A stretch of 4,692 bases of DNA from a virus. Its lineage: Duplodnaviria > Heunggongvirae > Uroviricota > Caudoviricetes. Positions 1-4,692 of the stretch are shown one piece after another. The translations under genes were made by a program, and so were the position numbers. Numbering within the stretch: position 1 is the stretch's first letter; every line of letters starts with the position of its first letter. Below the pieces are notes generated by a model. That model worked only from the letters and a program-made list of their open reading frames with translations, was not told the origin of the DNA and made no database searches. The stretch spans positions 1 through 4,692 of IMG/VR virus record IMGVR_UViG_2563366929_000001; one strand, written 5' to 3'.

Positions 1-41
1 CGTTGACGGACTTCGGGGGAAAAACGAGTATTTTTAGTCAT
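1..41 (-). CDS. IS3-family transposase OrfA, 5' partial (first 13 codons; remainder lies outside the window)
   Basis: ATG at 41..39 on the minus strand preceded by AGAGG; translation MTKNTRFSPEVRQ matches the IS629-type OrfA N-terminus as I recall it. Mirror image of 4652-4692. Confidence 0.7.
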   Translation of the reverse strand, partial: MTKNTRFSPEVRQ

Positions 42-95
42 CCTGTTTACCTCTTTCTCAGGAAGTTTAGTCTCCAGGATTCCCGGGGCGGTTCA
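1..95 (-). mobile_element. IS3-family insertion sequence (IS629-like), inward-facing orfA-proximal end; element continues beyond the window start
   Basis: Positions 1-95 are the exact reverse complement of 4598-4692 (checked base by base). Read on the minus strand the terminus starts TGAACCGCCCCGGG at position 95, followed by a Shine-Dalgarno and ATG at 41..39. I recognise the terminus and the MTKNTRFSPEVRQ N-terminus as IS629/IS1203-type from memory; no database search was run. Confidence 0.85.
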
Positions 96-134
96 GAGGG
101 TCATTATGGTGAATATGCTGGCTTGCTGGTGGGC

Positions 135-149
135 TATTCCTGCTCTTTA
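135..149. repeat. Direct repeat copy A: TATTCCTGCTCTTTA
   Basis: 15/15 identical to 393-407 on the same strand. Flanks add similarity (GG before, C-TTGC after), giving roughly 27 bp with a few mismatches. On the minus strand it reads KEQE plus a stop codon (TAG). Confidence 0.8.
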
Positions 150-391
150 ACATTGCCATGCCGCGATGTTTTCCAGGTATGCGACCCCATTTTTGTGTGC
201 CTGTACTCTTTAAGGAATTTCTCAAGGACAAACGCACAGGGCGCGAATCTGTCTGACTCATGCTCGTACGCTATCTTTCTGCGCTGTCTTTTCCGTGCCG
301 GTGATGGTGTATTGGTTGATTCTTTGTTGGTCATGGCGCTGCCCTGTAAAATAATGCACCGTAGTTCCTCACACCACGGCACCTATAGTGG

Positions 392-697
392 TTATTCCTG
401 CTCTTTAGCTTTGCGCCGCTGGAGTTCTTCACGCGCGACGGTGACGAGTTGCCCGATTTCCTCGGCAGCTTTGACTCCGATTTTTTCCACCTGCGCTAGG
501 GCATCGAGCGAAGAAACCAGGGGATTTTCTCCGCTTCCTTCTGCCTGGCGGCGGGCGATTTCACCGCGAACGGCTGTAATCACGAAAGCGGCTATTGTTT
601 CCCCTTCCGTTTTCGAATTTTCCATTTCCTCGATTACATCATGGGGGAAGCGGATATTTTTCATTTGCGATCTGCTGTTGATGTTTCCTGTTGCCAT
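392..697 (-). CDS. Small putative DNA-binding regulator, possibly ribbon-helix-helix (Arc/CopG-like); 101 aa, or 90 aa if translation starts at the ATG at 664
   Basis: Intact ORF divergent from the rightward operon. The segment NIRFPHDVIEEMEN followed by GETIAAFVITAVRGEIARR has the strand-then-helix pattern of Arc/Mnt-type proteins (compared from memory). Neither candidate start has a strong Shine-Dalgarno, so the start is uncertain. Fold assignment is inference. Confidence 0.5.
   Translation of the reverse strand: MATGNINSRSQMKNIRFPHDVIEEMENSKTEGETIAAFVITAVRGEIARRQAEGSGENPLVSSLDALAQVEKIGVKAAEEIGQLVTVAREELQRRKAKEQE
393..407. repeat. Direct repeat copy B: TATTCCTGCTCTTTA, overlapping the last codons of the 392-697 minus-strand gene
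   Basis: 15/15 identical to 135-149. On the minus strand it encodes the C-terminal KEQE of the regulator gene; the TAA stop is at 394..392. Confidence 0.8.
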
Positions 698-718
698 CAG
701 AATGTCCGGTTATTTTGA

Positions 719-737
719 GGTGTGTACACATTACACC
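719..737. repeat. Operator-like palindrome 1 (GGTGTGTACACATTACACC), core TGTGTACACA perfectly palindromic
   Basis: Seen directly; GGTGT at 719-723 and ACACC at 733-737 flank the 10-bp palindrome. Overlaps a candidate leftward extended -10 (minus strand TGgTGTAAT, plus coordinates 730-738). Confidence 0.5.
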
Positions 738-759
738 AAAAGGTGTGTTGATAAAACAC

Positions 760-789
760 TTGACACTGTAGCACACTTAAATTTAATTT
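760..789 (+). promoter_or_regulatory. Candidate sigma70 promoter for the rightward operon: -35 TTGACA (760-765), 18-bp spacer, -10 TAATTT (784-789)
   Basis: Perfect -35 consensus. The -10 matches the consensus T, A and final T positions only. Prediction by eye, not experimentally supported. Confidence 0.35.
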
Positions 790-821
790 GTATATACACC
801 AATTGTTGTGGTGTATATACA
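789..821. repeat. Operator-like palindrome 2: 12-bp perfect inverted repeat TGTATATACACC (789-800) / GGTGTATATACA (810-821), 9-bp spacer
   Basis: Exact reverse-complement arms; sits over the predicted -10 and start region of the rightward promoter. Confidence 0.55.
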
Positions 822-887
822 GCAACGCCCCGCAGTGGTGGCACACATGCAGGGCGTCTAACCAAACCGTTAAACGAGGTAACGATT

Positions 888-1253
888 ATGGCTGGAACAC
901 AGCATACCCAAACTCACCCTAAATTTATATACACCTTCCTGGCGGTGCACCGTGATTGCATTGCTGACGGTAAAAACACTGTACACGTAGCCGCCGATAC
1001 GCTGGTTGATGCCTGCGAGATGCTCAATGACATGGGCTATATCTCGGCAACATGGAAAGGGCGCGAAGAAAACACGCTGTTTATTCAGAAATGCGAAAAC
1101 AATTTTATCTGGCGTTTTATCGCCCTGAGTACGGCACAACCGCGCGTGATTCACATCGAGGCCACCAGCGAACAGGAAGCACGCCAGCAATCTCCTGATG
1201 GCTGCGTGATGGTATTCGCTGCCCGTATTCGCCAGGAGGTGGAGCATGTGTAA
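888..1253 (+). CDS. Hypothetical protein (121 aa), first gene of the rightward operon
   Basis: ATG at 888 with GAGG 8 nt upstream (876-879). The stop TAA (1251-1253) overlaps the next gene's ATG (1246) in the 8-nt pattern ATGTGTAA. The 3..1253 ORF in the track is the same frame, but only the part from 888 is credible. No family recognised. Confidence 0.65.
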   Translation: MAGTQHTQTHPKFIYTFLAVHRDCIADGKNTVHVAADTLVDACEMLNDMGYISATWKGREENTLFIQKCENNFIWRFIALSTAQPRVIHIEATSEQEARQQSPDGCVMVFAARIRQEVEHV

Positions 1254-1470
1254 TGCAACATGGCCTGATGCAGCGGTAGACGCTATCAAAACGCTGATGG
1301 ATTCACTTATTGAGATTTCTGCTATCGCTGGTGTGGCGCATAAACACGCAGCCAGAGAATCAGAATGCATCTCCCATTATTTAGCATTTGTGCAGCTAAA
1401 AGCCGATCAGGCACTGGATAAGGCCGGAAAAATTATCATGGCTGATGTGCAGGAGGTGCACCATGCATAA
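1246..1470 (+). CDS. Hypothetical small protein (74 aa); C-terminus (DVQEVHHA) resembles that of gene 4
   Basis: ATG at 1246 with AGGAGG (1234-1239) 6 nt upstream; 8-nt overlaps with both neighbours. Confidence 0.65.
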   Translation: MCNATWPDAAVDAIKTLMDSLIEISAIAGVAHKHAARESECISHYLAFVQLKADQALDKAGKIIMADVQEVHHA

Positions 1471-1828
1471 CCTGTCAATTTCTGACCTTAACAGCATTCA
1501 GTTTGACGAGAAATTTACCGGGCAGTTGCTGGTCAATGTGGAGAACGGGCGCATAGTGCGTAATTACCACCTGCCGGATGGTGCAATTGCCGGAAGCGTT
1601 GAAGCATTGCTGGAGCTGGCGGAACGTGCGCGACTGATTAAGCCGTCAACGTGCCATCACGATGATGATCTGCATTTTACCGGGTGTATGGTGAGTCACT
1701 ACGAAAACGGCGTTGAAGTATCCTGCGAACGTCTGCGTGATGATTGCTGTTTCGGCACACTGCCGGAATTTATCGAATTGCTGACCAGTTGCGGTTATCA
1801 GGTCATTCAGGGGGGTAAACATGCGTGA
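1463..1828 (+). CDS. Hypothetical protein (121 aa) made of two tandem copies of an FTG-motif domain; the C-terminal copy is Cys/His-rich
   Basis: ATG at 1463 with AGGAGG (1451-1456) 6 nt upstream, preferred over the track's ATG at 1445, which has no Shine-Dalgarno. Internal repeat FTGQLLVNVENGRIV / FTGCMVSHYENGVEV. Stop TGA at 1826-1828 overlaps the next ATG at 1821. Confidence 0.65.
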   Translation: MHNLSISDLNSIQFDEKFTGQLLVNVENGRIVRNYHLPDGAIAGSVEALLELAERARLIKPSTCHHDDDLHFTGCMVSHYENGVEVSCERLRDDCCFGTLPEFIELLTSCGYQVIQGGKHA

Positions 1829-2054
1829 TGATCGTTTTAATTCCCTGAAACAGGAGTTTGATGGCGCACCGGAAGATACATCGGGCGCATTGTTGAGCAT
1901 TGCTGACATGATGAAAGCTGCATATTTTCTTATCAATACCAGTGGCTACAAGTCAGAGGGTGAAATGATTCTTAGTATTGCGTCGGACTATGCTGAATAT
2001 GTGGCAGAGACGCGTTACAGAAGAAAATCTCTGGAGGATGTAAGCCATGCATAA
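1821..2054 (+). CDS. Hypothetical small protein (77 aa); C-terminus (LEDVSHA) resembles that of gene 2
   Basis: ATG at 1821 preceded by GGGGGT (1811-1816); 8-nt overlap ATGCATAA with the next gene. Confidence 0.6.
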   Translation: MRDDRFNSLKQEFDGAPEDTSGALLSIADMMKAAYFLINTSGYKSEGEMILSIASDYAEYVAETRYRRKSLEDVSHA

Positions 2055-2247
2055 TCATGAAGCGCATGTACCCGTAGTGCTTAATGTGCCAGATGATTTC
2101 ACCGGACGCGTGCTGGTTTACCTGGATAAAGGGAAAGTGAAATCACAATGCCGACTGAAAAGTAATGAGATTGTTGGTTCTCCTGAATTTTTTTCTGAAC
2201 TTTGTATTCGTGCGGAAATAAAACCGGAACTGCTGACAGGAAAATAA
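2047..2247 (+). CDS. Hypothetical small protein (66 aa), single-copy FTG-motif domain paralogous to both halves of gene 3
   Basis: ATG at 2047 with GGAGGA (2033-2038) 8 nt upstream. By-eye alignment to the gene 3 N-terminal domain gives about 40% identity over ~44 residues (FTGRVLVYLDKGKV..., ...ELCIRAEIKP versus ...ELAERARLIKP). Confidence 0.65.
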   Translation: MHNHEAHVPVVLNVPDDFTGRVLVYLDKGKVKSQCRLKSNEIVGSPEFFSELCIRAEIKPELLTGK

Positions 2248-2251
2248 AACC

Positions 2252-2542
2252 ATGAAAAAGAAATATTCTGGCTTTACTGCCAGCGGCCTCTCTCGGCCTG
2301 AAATCCGCCCCGGTGATATTTTCCGGGACACCAGACGCGGGGGACGGGTGGTTATTCGTCACGTTACGCCAGGCAATATCACCTACCGCCGTGAGGCTTA
2401 CGAATATGACTGCGTAATGCCGCGCCGTCAGTTTGAGCGTGATTTTATTCTGGTGGAAAACAAACAACAGGCAGTGGCGAGACGTGCAGCCACGAATATT
2501 AAAAAAATCCGGGCAATGTTGGTTGCGGGAGGTAAGAAGTGA
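2252..2542 (+). CDS. Hypothetical basic small protein (96 aa); loosely reminiscent of DUF4222-type prophage proteins (low confidence)
   Basis: ATG at 2252, 4 nt after the previous stop, with only a weak Shine-Dalgarno (AGGA about 11 nt upstream). Stop TGA (2540-2542) overlaps the GTG start of the replication gene. The family hint comes from a remembered RPGD...RRG...V pattern, not a search. Confidence 0.55.
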   Translation: MKKKYSGFTASGLSRPEIRPGDIFRDTRRGGRVVIRHVTPGNITYRREAYEYDCVMPRRQFERDFILVENKQQAVARRAATNIKKIRAMLVAGGKK

Positions 2543-4344
2543 AAAACGCACCGAATTTAAAATATCAGCCGAAGGATAAATTCACCGAGGTAATCATTTT
2601 TGCCGGGACGGATGCTTACGCCCATGCTCAACACTGGATTGAAAGCGAAGGACGAAAACACGGCGATAACGTGCCTCCTGTTTACCTGGGGCCAAAGCAA
2701 CTGGCAGACCTGGCGAATATCCGCATTGTCGACGATGAACGCCGCTTTGCGCGTGTCTATCTCGCGGGGGAGATAGAGCCAATCCAGATCAATGCTATTG
2801 CTGAAAAGCTGGCGCTGGCTGGTGTACAGGACGCGAAATTATACAAAGGTATCACCGACCGGGAGCCGGAAAACTGGCGCGACTACCTGCAACGGATCCG
2901 CGAACAGGCAGAGAGTGGGGAAGTTTCAGCGATGAAATTAGCCACAAAAAATATTGACCTATCCAGGCCAGCACTAAATCAGATGGGAGCCAGCCAGAGA
3001 GGGGAAGTGTTACTTGAATATTATGGAAGAGCACTGGCTATAAATGATGATTCTGATGTAGTTCACCATTACAACGGAATTGTCTGGGTGCCTGTATCTG
3101 ATAAGGAACTCCAGCGGTCTATGGCGAAGATTTTTATTGATGCTGGAATCAGTTATTCGCAAAACGCCATTAAATTTGCCGTAGACACAATGAAATTGAG
3201 CCTGCCTGTTATGGGCGGGGCAGACAGGAATCTTATTGGATTCAGTAACGGGGTATTTGATACCCGGACGGGAAATTTTCGGGAGCATAACAAAAATGAC
3301 TGGTTGTTAAATGCCAGTGAATTACCGTTCAGCCCACCAGCAGAGGGGGAAACGCTGGCAACACATGCGCCGAATTTCTGGAAGTGGCTGCGTCGTTCGG
3401 TGGCAGATAATGATCGTAAAGCTGATCGCGTACTGGCGGCATTATTCATGGTACTGGCGAACCGGTACGACTGGCAGTTATTCCTTGAGGTAACAGGCCC
3501 AGGCGGAAGCGGTAAAAGTGTGATGGCTGAGATTTGTACCATGCTGGCGGGTAAGGCCAACACAGTATCGGCAAGCATGAAGGCTCTGGAAGACGCAAGG
3601 GAACGCGCGTTAGTAGTTGGCTTTTCGCTGATTATCATGCCGGATATGACTCGCTACGCTGGCGATGGTGCAGGAATTAAGGCAATTACTGGCGGCGACA
3701 AGGTGGCAATTGATCCGAAACATAAAGCCCCCTACTCCACACGTATTCCGGCAGTAGTGCTTGCGGTAAACAATAACGCCATGTCATTCAGTGACCGAAG
3801 CGGGGGGATCTCGCGTCGTAGGGTGATATTTAATTTCTCTGAGGTCGTACCGGAGAACGAACGCGATCCCATGCTGGCGGAAAAGATAGAAGGCGAACTG
3901 GCGGTAGTGATTCGCCATTTGCTAACACGATTTACCGACCAGGACGAAGCTAAAAGACTACTTTATGAGCAGCAAAAATCAGAAGAAGCGCTGTTGATAA
4001 AGCGCGAAGGTGATTCACTGGTGGACTTTTGCGGCTATCTGATGTCGTTGGTTAAATGTGAAGGAATGATGGTGGGCAATGCGGAAATAGTGCCATTTAG
4101 CCCGAGGCGATACCTGTATCATGCTTATTTAGCCTATATGTCAGCGCATGGCCTGGGAAAACCAGTATCACTGACACGCTTTGGTACTGATATGCCAGGA
4201 GCTATGGCGGAATACGGAAAGGAGTATAAGCGGGCTAAATGCACTAAAGGCCCGGATAAAGGGCGAGTGATAACAAATGTTCTGTTAGATGATGATGCTG
4301 ATGGCTGGTTGCCAGCAGCTACAGGGATTAACGACAGAACATAA
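2539..4344 (+). CDS. Replication protein with P4 alpha / D5-type SF3 helicase (NTPase) C-terminal domain; putative primase-helicase/replication initiator of the element (601 aa, GTG start)
   Basis: Walker A motif GPGGSGKS (nt 3496-3519). Downstream ITGGDKVAIDPKHK (from nt 3685) followed by VVLAVNNN resembles the conserved motifs of the phage/plasmid primase P4-family C-terminal domain as I recall them. GTG at 2539 with GGAGG (2528-2532) 6 nt upstream; the first in-frame ATG is ~130 codons downstream, so GTG is the likely start. I did not recognise a canonical Toprim EGxxD motif in the N-terminal ~320 aa. Confidence 0.85.
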   Translation: MKNAPNLKYQPKDKFTEVIIFAGTDAYAHAQHWIESEGRKHGDNVPPVYLGPKQLADLANIRIVDDERRFARVYLAGEIEPIQINAIAEKLALAGVQDAKLYKGITDREPENWRDYLQRIREQAESGEVSAMKLATKNIDLSRPALNQMGASQRGEVLLEYYGRALAINDDSDVVHHYNGIVWVPVSDKELQRSMAKIFIDAGISYSQNAIKFAVDTMKLSLPVMGGADRNLIGFSNGVFDTRTGNFREHNKNDWLLNASELPFSPPAEGETLATHAPNFWKWLRRSVADNDRKADRVLAALFMVLANRYDWQLFLEVTGPGGSGKSVMAEICTMLAGKANTVSASMKALEDARERALVVGFSLIIMPDMTRYAGDGAGIKAITGGDKVAIDPKHKAPYSTRIPAVVLAVNNNAMSFSDRSGGISRRRVIFNFSEVVPENERDPMLAEKIEGELAVVIRHLLTRFTDQDEAKRLLYEQQKSEEALLIKREGDSLVDFCGYLMSLVKCEGMMVGNAEIVPFSPRRYLYHAYLAYMSAHGLGKPVSLTRFGTDMPGAMAEYGKEYKRAKCTKGPDKGRVITNVLLDDDADGWLPAATGINDRT

Positions 4345-4371
4345 TACGAAATTTATAAGCTGAAACGTAAA

Positions 4372-4572
4372 GGTAGACGGTTGGTAGACAGATTCACTTA
4401 ACCCTCTACCAACCATCTACCAATTAATATTTTGAATTATAAAGATATTTTCAATGTGGTAGAGAGGTAGACAGTTATTTCTATATTCCTAAACCACGGG
4501 GGGTATATAAAAAACAGATAGTTAAGGGGGCATTTTTTAAATTTCTCTTTTAACTGTCTACACTGTCTACCA
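4372..4572. repeat. Iteron array and AT-rich tracts directly downstream of the replication gene; candidate origin of replication (P4 crr/ori analogue)
   Basis: GGTAGA(C/G) in forward orientation at 4372, 4383, 4458 and 4466 (two as GGTAGACAG). Reverse-complement copies at 4405-4410, 4416-4421 and a tandem 9-mer pair ACTGTCTAC at 4553-4561 and 4562-4570. Several pairs are spaced 11 bp apart, about one helical turn. AT-rich stretches at 4421-4457 and 4476-4553. Confidence 0.6.
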
Positions 4573-4597
4573 TTTAGTAAAAATCATTAATTATCAA

Positions 4598-4692
4598 TGA
4601 ACCGCCCCGGGAATCCTGGAGACTAAACTTCCTGAGAAAGAGGTAAACAGGATGACTAAAAATACTCGTTTTTCCCCCGAAGTCCGTCAACG
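4598..4692 (+). mobile_element. IS3-family insertion sequence (IS629-like), inward-facing orfA-proximal end; element continues beyond the window end
   Basis: TGAACCGCCCCGGGAATCCTGGAGACTAAACTTCC... begins at 4598, with Shine-Dalgarno AGAGG and ATG at 4652. Exact reverse complement of 1-95. Confidence 0.85.
4652..4692 (+). CDS. IS3-family transposase OrfA, 5' partial (first 13 codons)
   Basis: ATG at 4652; translation MTKNTRFSPEVRQ, then the window ends. Confidence 0.7.
   Translation, partial: MTKNTRFSPEVRQ

Follow-up and report, generated by a model that had tools for sequence, protein, structure and literature searches.

Gene organization of the locus

The window (the whole 4,692-nucleotide stretch that was analysed) carries six open reading frames (ORFs) of 66–121 aa, placed head to tail at 888–2542, together with a primase/helicase gene and an origin-like region, as follows:

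O1, 888–1253, plus strand: 121 aa, first gene of the operon; tandem double Icd-like (P4 Kil-like) protein
O2, 1246–1470, plus strand: 74 aa; orphan, phrog_5146
O3, 1463–1828, plus strand: 121 aa, ATG at 1463; two O5-type domains, phrog_340 in two stretches
G6 run, 1810–1815, plus strand: at the O3/O4 junction, serving as the Shine-Dalgarno sequence of O4
O4, 1821–2054, plus strand: 77 aa; acidic, predicted helical; phrog_24341 and the C-terminal half of phrog_2512
O5, 2047–2247, plus strand: 66 aa; single O3/O5 domain, phrog_340
O6, 2252–2542, plus strand: 96 aa; basic, pI 10.95; DUF4222, RgdR family
Primase/helicase, 2539–4344, plus strand: 601 aa; D5_N, DUF5906 and Pox_D5; last gene of the operon
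Origin-like region, 4370–4575, unstranded: about nine GGTAGAC-type iterons in both orientations; about 35% GC

The six ORFs had been described in an earlier note on this DNA, and their coordinates are confirmed by the NCBI annotation pipeline (RefSeq), which calls the six CDSs at identical coordinates in complete genomes. A Shine-Dalgarno (SD) sequence before each ORF, weak for the sixth, had also been described and is found as GAGG for O1, GGAGG for O2, O3 and O5, the G6 run for O4 and AGGA for O6. The junctions are tighter than that description suggested: 8-nt overlaps (ATGnnTAA or TGA, that is, ATGnnTRA) join O1 to O2, O2 to O3, O3 to O4 and O4 to O5, O5 and O6 are separated by a gap of 4 nt, and O6 overlaps the primase gene by 4 nt. 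The earlier note had allowed that conservation might speak against translation of the small ORFs; comparison with divergent alleles points instead to purifying selection in all six, with dN/dS below 1 throughout and overall values of 0.1–0.6 (O1 0.21–0.26; O2 0.20; O3 0.10–0.18; O4 0.27–0.61; O5 0.31–0.50, where 0.31 is based on two substitutions only; O6 0.22–0.50). Each of the six ORFs matches a PHROG family, and the number of contigs with the exact O1–O6 protein sequences ranges from hundreds to more than 1000. On these signatures the six ORFs are genuine coding genes, and their junctions mark them as translationally coupled. It had further been stated that none of them belongs to a characterised family, which holds for the orphan families O2 and O4 but not for O1 (Icd-like) or O6 (DUF4222/RgdR). 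By homology, two of the six genes fall in partly characterised families, one that of a cell-division inhibitor and the other that of RgdR, a regulator, while O2–O5 are without assigned function.

The first gene and the likeness to P4

O1 scores 80.6 bits over aa 73–116 against the NCBIfam Icd-like model NF033153, whose curated cutoff is 25 bits, and P4 orf137 (the kil/eta frame) scores 73.9 bits against the same model, so the two proteins carry the same domain. O1 also aligns twice to the single-domain Icd-like protein of EcCIMP1, over aa 1–42 (E 1e-5) and aa 70–120 (E 5e-7), and its AF2 model (pLDDT 69) contains two beta-beta-alpha-beta units; as judged from these alignments and this model, O1 is a tandem duplication of the Icd-like domain. 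The Pfam family Phage_ASH gave no match in O1, whereas P4 orf137 does match it, and the N-terminal half of O1 is a second Icd-like copy at the place where P4 Eta has its Ash domain. Against P1 Icd the tblastn match is weak (43% over 42 aa, database E about 3), and the weak O1 matches in P1, P7, SJ46 and RCS47 all land on the icd gene. By alignment, P4 Kil/Eta is a homolog of O1, and P1 Icd may be a distant one. A protein search of the phage collection with O1 returned the satellite vB_KppS-Ant as its sole match. The PHROG label of O1, "transcriptional repressor", was considered and rejected; it derives from an obsolete "cI protein" annotation of P4 orf137, with no functional evidence behind it. 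It has been reported in the literature that P4 Kil inhibits division or kills on expression; similarly, loss of the Icd-like gene in ECOR61 abolished cell death triggered by orf24 (10.1101/2023.04.06.535777). By analogy, O1 of the window may be toxic as well.

The block had been likened to the small early genes upstream of alpha in P4, and this likeness is borne out by the Icd-like domain in the first ORF, the 8-nt coupled junctions and the satellite context. In the left operon of P4 (eta/kil orf137 – epsilon – orf151 – orf106 – alpha), the first gene likewise carries an Icd-like domain, whose tail encodes GGAGGTG and the next start codon and gives 8-nt overlaps, and a run of small genes precedes a D5/P4-type primase/helicase. 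In the window, the C-terminal tail of O1 encodes the SD and ATG of O2, and the junction after the Icd-like gene reads GGAGGTGgagcATGtgTAA, compared with GGAGGTGtcccGTGcgTAA in P4. The likeness does not extend to the remaining small genes: O2–O6 are unrelated to P4 epsilon (PF25738), orf151 and orf106 (DUF5375), the best blastp E being not better than 0.2, and they gave no matches to the Pfam/PHROG families of these three P4 proteins, which match their own.

The middle genes O2–O5

The O2 family is rare, with only 18 representatives among 1.8 billion proteins. O5 is 34% identical to the N-terminal half of O3 (E 1e-7), and a low-confidence model gives the secondary structure of O3 as two beta-beta-beta-alpha-beta units; O3 is, on this similarity, an internal duplication of the domain that forms O5, and O3N, O3C and O5 are homologous. 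The G run at 1810–1815 varies among alleles: with G5, O3 and O4 are read as one protein of 196 aa, present on more than 130 contigs, and in one locus (L026) the run is 3 nt longer with the frame kept. Natural fusions join O4 either to O3 or to O2-like proteins. Two further relationships were tried and rejected. An arrangement of O2–O3 and O4–O5 as a duplicated two-gene cassette is contradicted by an hhalign probability of 0.2% for O2/O4, with only O3N, O3C and O5 homologous; the O3/O5 domain has a predicted secondary structure similar to that of the Icd-like domain, but hhalign gives a probability of 1.7% for a distant relationship between them.

As for co-occurrence of the six genes, a census of 89 loci sharing the operon leader has an O1-family gene first in 87, a DUF4222 gene in 75 and O2 in 43, with variable middle genes. 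Co-occurrence thus applies to O1 and O6, which are almost always kept, and not to O2–O5, which are swapped for other cassettes. O2, O3, O4 and O5 are each missing from some natural variants, and for this reason the six genes do not form one obligate complex. The earlier idea of a multi-protein system is therefore only partly upheld, its other side being that a sibling module acts as a cell-death system in ECOR61. O2–O5 may be viewed as interchangeable accessory cassettes whose most likely target is the helper phage or the host.

A more specific proposal, building on the earlier note, is that O2–O5 interfere with or derepress the helper, or counter host defences, each factor being specific to one helper phage or defence. 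Variable gene content of this type typically consists of genes in conflict with phages or host defences, and between O1 and O6 at least seven recurrent cassette families are found; the O2–O5 families have a narrow taxonomic range and evolve fast, and they hold the slot that epsilon, the factor for helper derepression, occupies in P4. However, O2–O6 are without similarity to epsilon, orf151 or orf106. In sequence searches of solved structures with O1, O2, the O3–O4 profile, O6 and the divergent regulator, no match was found, so that O2 and the O3–O4 profile have no sequence-related solved structure to speak for this proposal. The AF2 model of the natural 196-aa O3–O4 fusion (pLDDT 50, pTM 0.28) was too poor for a fold search, and the phage collection contained no nucleotide match to the window and no protein match to O3. 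PADLOC 2.0, a library of defence systems only, likewise gave no match at E ≤ 0.1 for O1–O6 and the primase. The proposal is conjectural and falls short of an even chance.

O6, RgdR and the replication genes

O6 matches Pfam DUF4222 with 69.9 bits over aa 16–68 (gathering score 27 bits) and aligns over its full length with RgdR (ECs1581), with 49% identity and 64% positives over 100 columns (E 8e-26); by this alignment it is a full-length homolog of the RgdR family. According to published work, RgdR is a pleiotropic regulator that binds DNA weakly and without specificity, acts in trans on chromosomal promoters and has an RGD motif, at residues 20–22, that is important for LEE activation (PMC3378721). 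In O6 the corresponding motif is IRPGDIF, compared with FMRGDIY in RgdR, the RGD of residues 20–22 being replaced by RPGD. In Sakai Sp7, the RgdR gene ECs1581 overlaps the primase gene ECs1582 by 4 nt and thus holds the same position as O6. Sp7 and EDL933 CP-933C (OI-51) resemble the window in gene order: an Icd-like gene comes first, small coupled genes follow, and a DUF4222 gene precedes a primase gene with the 4-nt overlap. The upstream region of Sp7 is of the same type, with promoter, repeats and hairpin. Sp7 differs from the window in its single-domain 65-aa Icd-like gene, its ECOR61-type cassettes and its capsid genes. A further RgdR ortholog is C1493 of CFT073, which is placed in EcCICFT073 by locus-tag order only.

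The position of O6, always immediately upstream of the replicase with the 4-nt overlap, raises the question of whether the small proteins, and O6 especially, are replication accessory factors for the primase/helicase, such as origin-binding or loader proteins. O6 is basic and its homolog RgdR binds DNA non-specifically; in addition, where the body of the replicase is of the AAA_25 or DUF927 family (L007, L023–L025), the first ~130–146 aa of the replicase are 86–91% identical beside a 98%-identical O6. A 98%-identical O6 is, however, also found beside replicases that are 55% identical over their full length, N-terminal region included, and O6 stands beside three replicase families, so there is no strict co-variation of O6 and replicase. 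The action of RgdR in trans on chromosomal promoters and the dispensability of O2–O5 in natural variants also count against such a role, which is on balance somewhat unlikely. The iteron region at 4370–4575 may function as an origin, by analogy with the known PICI layout (PMC6092414).

The upstream control region

Upstream of O1, the following elements are present:

Regulator gene, 392–697, minus strand: divergent, 101 aa, YlcI/YnfO family; NCBIfam NF041551 with 64 bits (cutoff 30)
Candidate sigma-70 promoter, 760–787, plus strand: −35 TTGACA at 760–765, 16-nt spacer, −10 TTTAAT at 782–787; read from the sequence
Candidate operator, 789–821, unstranded: perfect 13-bp inverted repeat TGTATATACACCA-N7-TGGTGTATATACA, 100% complementary, over the predicted transcription start
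5′ leader hairpin, 825–857, plus strand: conserved; 10 pairs in RNAalifold
Small stem CGTTA/TAACG, 868–884, plus strand: SD of O1, GAGG (876–879), in the loop

The automatic promoter scan accepts only −10 hexamers with A as the second base and for that reason did not call the candidate promoter. When 8 divergent upstream regions are aligned, conservation is seen at both the −35 and the −10 positions. At the operator position, each promoter variant carries a repeated motif of its own, and in sibling loci the N-terminal strand region of the regulator changes with the operator repeats while its C-terminal half is constant. The regulator has a weak Pfam match to a ribbon-helix-helix (RHH) family, and regulators of other operator types match HicB-RHH (25.4 bits, cutoff 21), DUF3950 and, weakly, Arc. 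It is likely that the YlcI/YnfO regulator is an RHH repressor of the O1 operon.

In the leader hairpin, 95.3% of cells are paired, compared with 31–47% with slid partners; compensatory changes occur in 4 pairs, and the covariation score was reached by 0 of 500 shuffles. No Rfam family matched the hairpin. The small stem at 868–884 is invariant and lies inside the locus search pattern, so its conservation is unusable as evidence. The RHH-type regulator and the covarying leader hairpin probably control the operon together. P4 has a CI/C4 immunity RNA where the window has the divergent RHH-type protein instead, and a permissive Rfam scan (E ≤ 1) for C4/CI-type immunity RNA (C4, isrK) found no match in the window; regulation therefore differs from that of P4 and P1. 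The layout is like that of the SaPIs, which are Gram-positive PICIs (Stl and str-xis-pri-rep): there, a small repressor gene diverges from an operon whose last elements are replicase and origin; this is a likeness of arrangement with no sequence relationship, and the repressor role in the window is putative.

Satellite context and distribution

In complete genomes with an identical segment, the order is tRNA-Thr, integrase, a hypothetical gene, an AlpA-type HTH gene, AntA/B and the segment of the window; the tyrosine integrase and AlpA lie outside the window. The insertion site, tRNA-Thr next to the MarR/vat island, is that of the experimentally mobilised EcCIMP1 (Pick, Stadel and Raivio 2025, PMC11773190), whose tRNA-Thr site is flanked by proA and the MarR/vat island. 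EcCIMP1 has a near-identical integrase and also carries AlpA and AntA/B. The annotation of one such island (L001) includes no structural or lysis genes. By its gene content and site, the island is an EcCIMP1-like Gram-negative PICI at tRNA-Thr, a phage satellite of E. coli. Helper-dependent excision, replication and transfer have been shown experimentally for EcCIMP1 only (PMC11773190). The early operon of EcCIMP1 is put together differently from that of the window: besides DUF4222 and a single Icd-like gene, it has a broken Ash gene, a TOPRIM-DUF927 primase and six small genes unrelated to those here. Of 5426 complete E. coli genomes, 1689 match part of the window by megablast, and the order of an Icd-like gene, 2–7 small ORFs and a replicase gene was found at 11 loci in ten genera of Enterobacterales.

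Relation to the ECOR61 cell-death module

In a bioRxiv preprint, Silas et al. reported cell death in ECOR61 triggered by the phage accessory gene orf24 (10.1101/2023.04.06.535777). In some loci, an 86%-identical 121-aa O1 precedes a 186-nt gene with an 8-nt overlap and then a 192-nt gene with a 1-nt overlap, the exact coordinates of the ECOR61 suppressors; this link to ECOR61 is based on identical gene lengths and overlaps and not on sequence alignment to ECOR61. Loci with this signature (366, 186 and 192 nt) share with the window the leader, the 121-aa double Icd-like O1, the DUF4222 gene and the primase. They differ in their middle genes, of 61, 63 and 73/80 aa in place of O2–O5, and in L053, the sole ECOR61-type locus with a full-length primase call, the primase is 44% identical to that of the window. 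By this comparison of gene content, the window is a cassette variant of the ECOR61 module and not the same system.

The block and the primase could be read as primarily a dedicated abortive-infection (superinfection-exclusion) system, in which the small proteins detect a phage protein and set the Icd-like toxin free, with satellite replication as a secondary role. Death triggered by orf24 was reconstituted only with all six linked ECOR61 genes, primase included, and the transposon suppressors lay in the Icd-like gene and the next two small genes (10.1101/2023.04.06.535777); the window shares the leader, the O1 type, the DUF4222 gene and the primase with that module. Transposon hits in promoter-proximal genes may, however, be polar on the genes downstream, O2–O5 are each dispensable in natural variants, and PADLOC gave no match. 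Moreover, the replicase lies in the same operon, an iteron origin adjoins it, integrase and AlpA accompany it and siblings carry capsid genes, and for these reasons the operon is taken as the early operon of the satellite itself. A primarily abortive function is therefore unlikely.

That the six ORFs are decaying or spurious frames of a degraded island is highly improbable: IS ends flank the segment in the source strain and an IS insertion lies downstream of the primase in the islands of many genomes, but all six ORFs have dN/dS below 1, frames and junctions are intact over hundreds of contigs, and both capsid-bearing satellites and an island of E. ruysiae have kept the ORFs.

Proposed mechanism and significance

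The explanation considered probable is that the six ORFs lie nearest the promoter in the early (replication) operon of an EcCIMP1-like Gram-negative PICI, an operon that would work in the following way. In the resting state, the sigma-70 promoter at 760–787, overlapped by the 13-bp inverted repeat, would be held off by the divergent YlcI/YnfO RHH-type protein; a phage-derived cue would then allow transcription through the structured leader into O1. Because the C-terminal tail of O1 contains the SD and start codon of the next gene, ribosomes would be handed along the 8-nt overlaps to O6 and the primase/helicase, which would fire the iteron origin immediately downstream. O1 would stop the host from dividing or growing, an effect reported for P1 Icd, P4 Kil and the ECOR61 module, and O6 would serve as an RgdR-type small basic DNA-associating cofactor. 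O2–O5 would be swappable cassettes that are dispensable for the core cycle and are most likely directed at helper phage or host.

Gram-negative PICIs have been reported to be activated by AlpA, the one regulator established for them by experiment, and the existence of a repressor has been described as "unclear" (PMC6092414). A bolder version of the proposed mechanism, speculative and distinctly improbable at present, is that this class of Gram-negative PICI has its missing "Stl-like" master repressor in the RHH-type protein, that phage accessory proteins such as orf24 are anti-repressors, that derepression fires the O1 operon and that the O2–O5 cassettes set which phage is sensed or attacked. 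If so, these satellites would encode a modular switch from phage sensing to growth arrest and replication, with the leader RNA as a second layer of control.

For the early operon of the satellite as proposed here, the meaning is that one modular unit links the virulence regulator RgdR of EHEC, the ECOR61 cell-death module and the PICIs EcCIMP1 and (by locus-tag order) EcCICFT073, three lines of work, on RgdR, the ECOR61 module and PICI satellites, that were previously reported separately. It yields a candidate repressor/operator pair for elements whose repressor has been described as "unclear", and a candidate leader hairpin. Related operons occur across Enterobacterales, and the swappable set of small genes may decide the specificity between satellite and phage.

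Coding Status and Coupling of the Six Genes

The cluster at 888–2542 is of a known kind, forming the front part of an early operon in a phage satellite of the P4-like or PICI type. Its six small genes (O1–O6) lie head to tail exactly where the earlier note had placed them, and RefSeq annotates the same six coding sequences in complete genomes with an identical segment.

888–1253 (+), O1, 121 aa
1246–1470 (+), O2, 74 aa
1463–1828 (+), O3, 121 aa
1821–2054 (+), O4, 77 aa
2047–2247 (+), O5, 66 aa
2252–2542 (+), O6, 96 aa
2539–4344 (+), primase/helicase, 601 aa, 3′ of O6

At four junctions in a row the genes overlap by 8 nt (ATGnnTAA or ATGnnTGA), with GGAGG or a G-run directly 5′ of each overlap; a gap of 4 nt separates O5 from O6, whose end overlaps the primase start by 4 nt, and the weak Shine–Dalgarno sequence reported for the sixth gene is borne out, as O6 has AGGA only. 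Against divergent alleles, dN/dS is below 1 for every ORF (O1 0.21–0.26; O2 0.20; O3 0.10–0.18; O4 0.27–0.61; O5 0.31–0.50, the lower value reflecting two substitutions only; O6 0.22–0.50; primase about 0.15); all six are under purifying selection. O1–O6 are real genes, because RefSeq calls them, dN/dS stays below 1 and the exact proteins occur on hundreds to more than 1000 contigs.

Core Genes and Interchangeable Cassettes

The census query was the 34-nt leader directly 5′ of O1, found in 30 metagenomic and 39 IMG/VR contigs, and arrangements were counted in 89 leader-bearing loci. An O1-family gene stands first in 87 of the 89, and a DUF4222 gene is present in 75.

Gene arrangements and approximate number of loci
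O1-O2-O3-O4-O5-O6 (window type), ~38
O1-O3-O5-O6, ~13
O1, 61-aa, 63-aa and 73/80-aa genes, O6, ~11
O1, unrelated 74-aa gene, O6, ~8

Further arrangements are O1-O2-O3-O6 and an O2-like–O4 fusion followed by O6. From these arrangements it follows that O1 and O6 are the core and O2–O5 interchangeable cassettes; the swapping of O2–O5 among natural loci speaks against an obligate six-protein machine, one form of the multi-protein system raised in the earlier note. The replicase 3′ of O6 belongs to one of three families (D5_N/DUF5906, DUF927 or AAA_25). Its N-terminal ~130–146 aa, without a Pfam match, are 86–91% identical (window 2539–2930, aa 1–130) where the body is AAA_25 or DUF927 (L007, L023–L025); since this identity persists despite a body from another family, the N-terminus there moves together with the small genes rather than with the rest of the replicase. 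Where the replicase is a 582-aa D5_N/DUF5906 protein, identity over its whole length is only 55%. The layout of an Icd-like tail, two to seven small overlapping ORFs and a replicase was found in eleven loci from ten Enterobacterales genera.

Among the cassettes, O3 is an internal duplication of the O5 domain (34% identity, E 1e-7; both phrog_340), and O2 (phrog_5146) and O4 (phrog_24341) are orphan families, a set of 1.8 billion proteins containing just 18 representatives of O2; members of the O3 and O4 families occur only in Escherichia and Salmonella. Profile comparison showed no kinship between O2 and O4, and none between the O3/O5 domain and Icd-like. O2–O5 showed no resemblance to P4 epsilon, orf151 or orf106 and matched no PADLOC model, and a sequence search of solved structures with O1, O2, an O3–O4 profile and O6 returned nothing related; the AlphaFold2 model of a natural O3–O4 fusion (pLDDT 50) was too poor for a fold search. 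This fusion arises at the O3/O4 junction, where a G6 homopolymer (1810–1815) loses one G, and the resulting G5 alleles encode a 196-aa O3–O4 protein on more than 130 contigs; the G-run may act as a switch or simply be a hot spot for mutation. Natural O2-like–O4 fusions (phrog_2512) are joined across a GGG junction, and an E. ruysiae allele has three extra in-frame G's at the O3/O4 junction. Chimeras joined inside the repeated domains were also seen (P0159, O3 N-terminus with O5; P0130, O3N to O3C; P0154, O3C to O4 at 'RDD'), which suggests that the repeats recombine frequently, and some chimeras could be assembly artefacts.

The Core Proteins O1 and O6

The earlier statement that none of the six genes has a characterised family stands for O2–O5 and fails for O1 and O6. 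O1 scores 80.6 bits against the NCBIfam 'Icd-like' model (cutoff 25) and aligns twice to the 64-aa single-domain Icd-like protein of EcCIMP1, a PICI at tRNA-Thr (aa 1–42, E 1e-5; aa 70–120, E 5e-7). Its AlphaFold2 model shows two successive beta-beta-alpha-beta units (pLDDT 69; N-terminal domain 82–87), and the double alignment and two-unit model make O1 a tandem double Icd-like protein. In a permissive tblastn search, the C-terminal domain gave weak matches (43%, 42 aa) exactly at the icd genes of P1, P7 and relatives.

P4 orf137 (the kil/eta frame, once annotated 'cI protein') carries the same Icd-like domain 3′ of an Ash domain. The O1 families PHROG 6196, 1743 and 6928 are labelled 'transcriptional repressor', a label rejected here as inherited from the obsolete 'cI protein' annotation; it has been reported that P4 immunity is RNA-mediated via CI RNA and that the orf137 frame is eta/kil (PMC10111431). 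In all family members the domain tail '...QEV.H.' is coded by GGAGGTG, a few bases and cATG, and so also supplies the following gene with its ribosome-binding site and start codon. The same arrangement occurs at the P4 orf137/epsilon junction, and a second 8-nt overlap at epsilon/orf151, so the comparison with P4 made earlier is upheld by both the shared domain and the coupled junctions. P4 Kil is reported to kill cells, and translation of eta to block termination and so let the genes downstream be read (PMC10111431). In contrast to P4 and P1, the window lacks a C4/CI-type RNA. Some Ash-type relatives (P0246, P0252, P0255, P0260, P0283; alignment A5) contain a partial Icd-like segment, an Ash domain and a full Icd-like domain.

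Silas et al. reported that in ECOR61 the phage accessory gene orf24 leads to cell death; transposon suppressors mapped to QOYT01000045.1 at 9309–9675 (Icd-like), 9131–9317 and 8940–9132, the phenotype was rebuilt only with all six linked genes, the primase among them, and it was lost when the Icd-like gene was removed (bioRxiv 10.1101/2023.04.06.535777). Gene lengths computed from these coordinates are 366, 186 and 192 nt, and the overlaps 8 and 1 nt, exactly as in the O1-61-63-73/80-O6-primase loci; O1 in those loci shares 86% identity with the window's O1. From this exact match of gene lengths and overlaps, we infer that the window operon is a cassette variant of the ECOR61 module.

O6 scores 69.9 bits against Pfam DUF4222 (cutoff 27). 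The one member studied, RgdR (ECs1581) of E. coli O157, is basic and 99 aa long; it activates LEE1 and type III secretion and represses motility, and its DNA binding is weak and non-specific (PMC3378721, PMC10877973). Full-length identity between O6 and RgdR is 49% (E 8e-26), but the RGD motif, important for RgdR activity, reads RPGD in O6. In Sakai, 'prophage Sp7' has the order integrase, 247-aa gene, 65-aa Icd-like gene, 186-, 192- and 243-nt genes and ECs1581, followed by the primase (4-nt overlap with ECs1581), SSB, PchE, and head, protease and portal genes. Given this order and overlap, RgdR holds in a capsid-forming satellite the position that O6 has here. Some sibling loci also contain lambda-type capsid genes.

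Control Region and Probable Origin

392–697 (−), YlcI-like gene, a divergent small regulator of the YlcI/YnfO family, ribbon-helix-helix type
760–765 and 782–787 (+), candidate promoter, −35 TTGACA and −10 TTTAAT, 16-nt spacer, both positions kept in divergent relatives
789–801 and 809–821, perfect 13-bp inverted repeat upstream of O1
4370–4575, candidate origin just 3′ of the primase, about nine GGTAGAC-type iterons in both orientations, ~35% GC

In almost all loci a small regulator gene is transcribed divergently, and the place of the inverted repeat is taken by a repeated motif specific to each promoter variant. The N-terminal strand region of the regulator varies in step with the promoter repeats (392–697 (−) and 718–821; L037–L105), and the C-terminal half of the YlcI type is constant across loci; regulators of other operator types match the HicB family of ribbon-helix-helix proteins (above cutoff), DUF3950 and, weakly, Arc. 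Regulator and inverted repeat would form a putative repressor/operator pair, and the sets look like immunity types. The Gram-negative PICI repressor is called 'unclear' in published work, and no paper describing such a repressor was found in the literature.

Between promoter and O1, a leader hairpin (825–857) is 95% paired across 17 distinct variants (slid partners 31–47%), with compensatory changes in 4 of 10 pairs and a covariation score reached by none of 500 shuffles; no Rfam family matches it. The hairpin lies outside the leader search pattern; conservation of the invariant leader 3′ of it is no evidence, because that part lies inside the pattern. Sakai Sp7 has a similar hairpin and TTCTAACCAA leader (L106 22430–22480). 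The iteron region is probably the satellite origin; a weak, sub-threshold Plastid-psbM Rfam match there reflects a 17-bp inverted repeat (4372–4421).

Genomic Setting

Window 96–4596 is 100% identical to chromosomal DNA in several complete E. coli genomes, with partial segment matches in 1689 of 5426 genomes. The order there is tRNA-Thr, tyrosine integrase, a hypothetical gene, an AlpA-type HTH gene, an AntA/AntB antirepressor gene and the window segment, with a MarR/vat island beyond. EcCIMP1, whose induction and transfer by phage Kapi1 have been demonstrated experimentally (PMC11773190), shares the insertion site and left-end gene set but differs in its own operon (DUF4222, a broken Ash gene, a single Icd-like gene, six unrelated small genes and a TOPRIM-DUF927 primase).

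Window 1–95 (−) and 4598–4692 (+) match each other perfectly over 95 nt as inverted copies of an IS3-family end. The complete genomes examined have only the right-hand copy at this spot, and the left junction 95/96 is unbroken; therefore, either the source strain has the regulator-to-origin module between inverted IS copies or the contig merely ends in repeats. A 66-aa ORF at 134–334 (−), 3′ of the YlcI-like gene, is phrog_21027 and labelled hypothetical in RefSeq. Outside the window, near the far end of the same island, a DNA methyltransferase, a DUF262 protein and a HEPN-like nuclease (L001 23229–26327) look like defence cargo. Sibling islands (L006–L025) carry a ProQ/FinO-like and a PerC-family gene 3′ of the origin, downstream of the primase, and the window's lineage has an IS3-family element directly 3′ of the origin. 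With a ProQ/FinO-type RNA binder and a structured leader in one element, a joint test may be worthwhile.

Proposed Mechanism and Significance

Partly characterised families account for two of the six genes (Icd/Kil for O1, RgdR/DUF4222 for O6); O2–O5 are genuine cassettes, for which helper or host manipulation is the leading guess. In the most likely mechanism, the operon would be kept repressed, with its genes translationally coupled, until derepression by a phage cue; O1 would then arrest the host and the satellite would replicate. The value of the finding is that RgdR, the ECOR61 cell-death module and the PICI satellites are linked, and that the repressor, operator and leader are offered as testable candidates.
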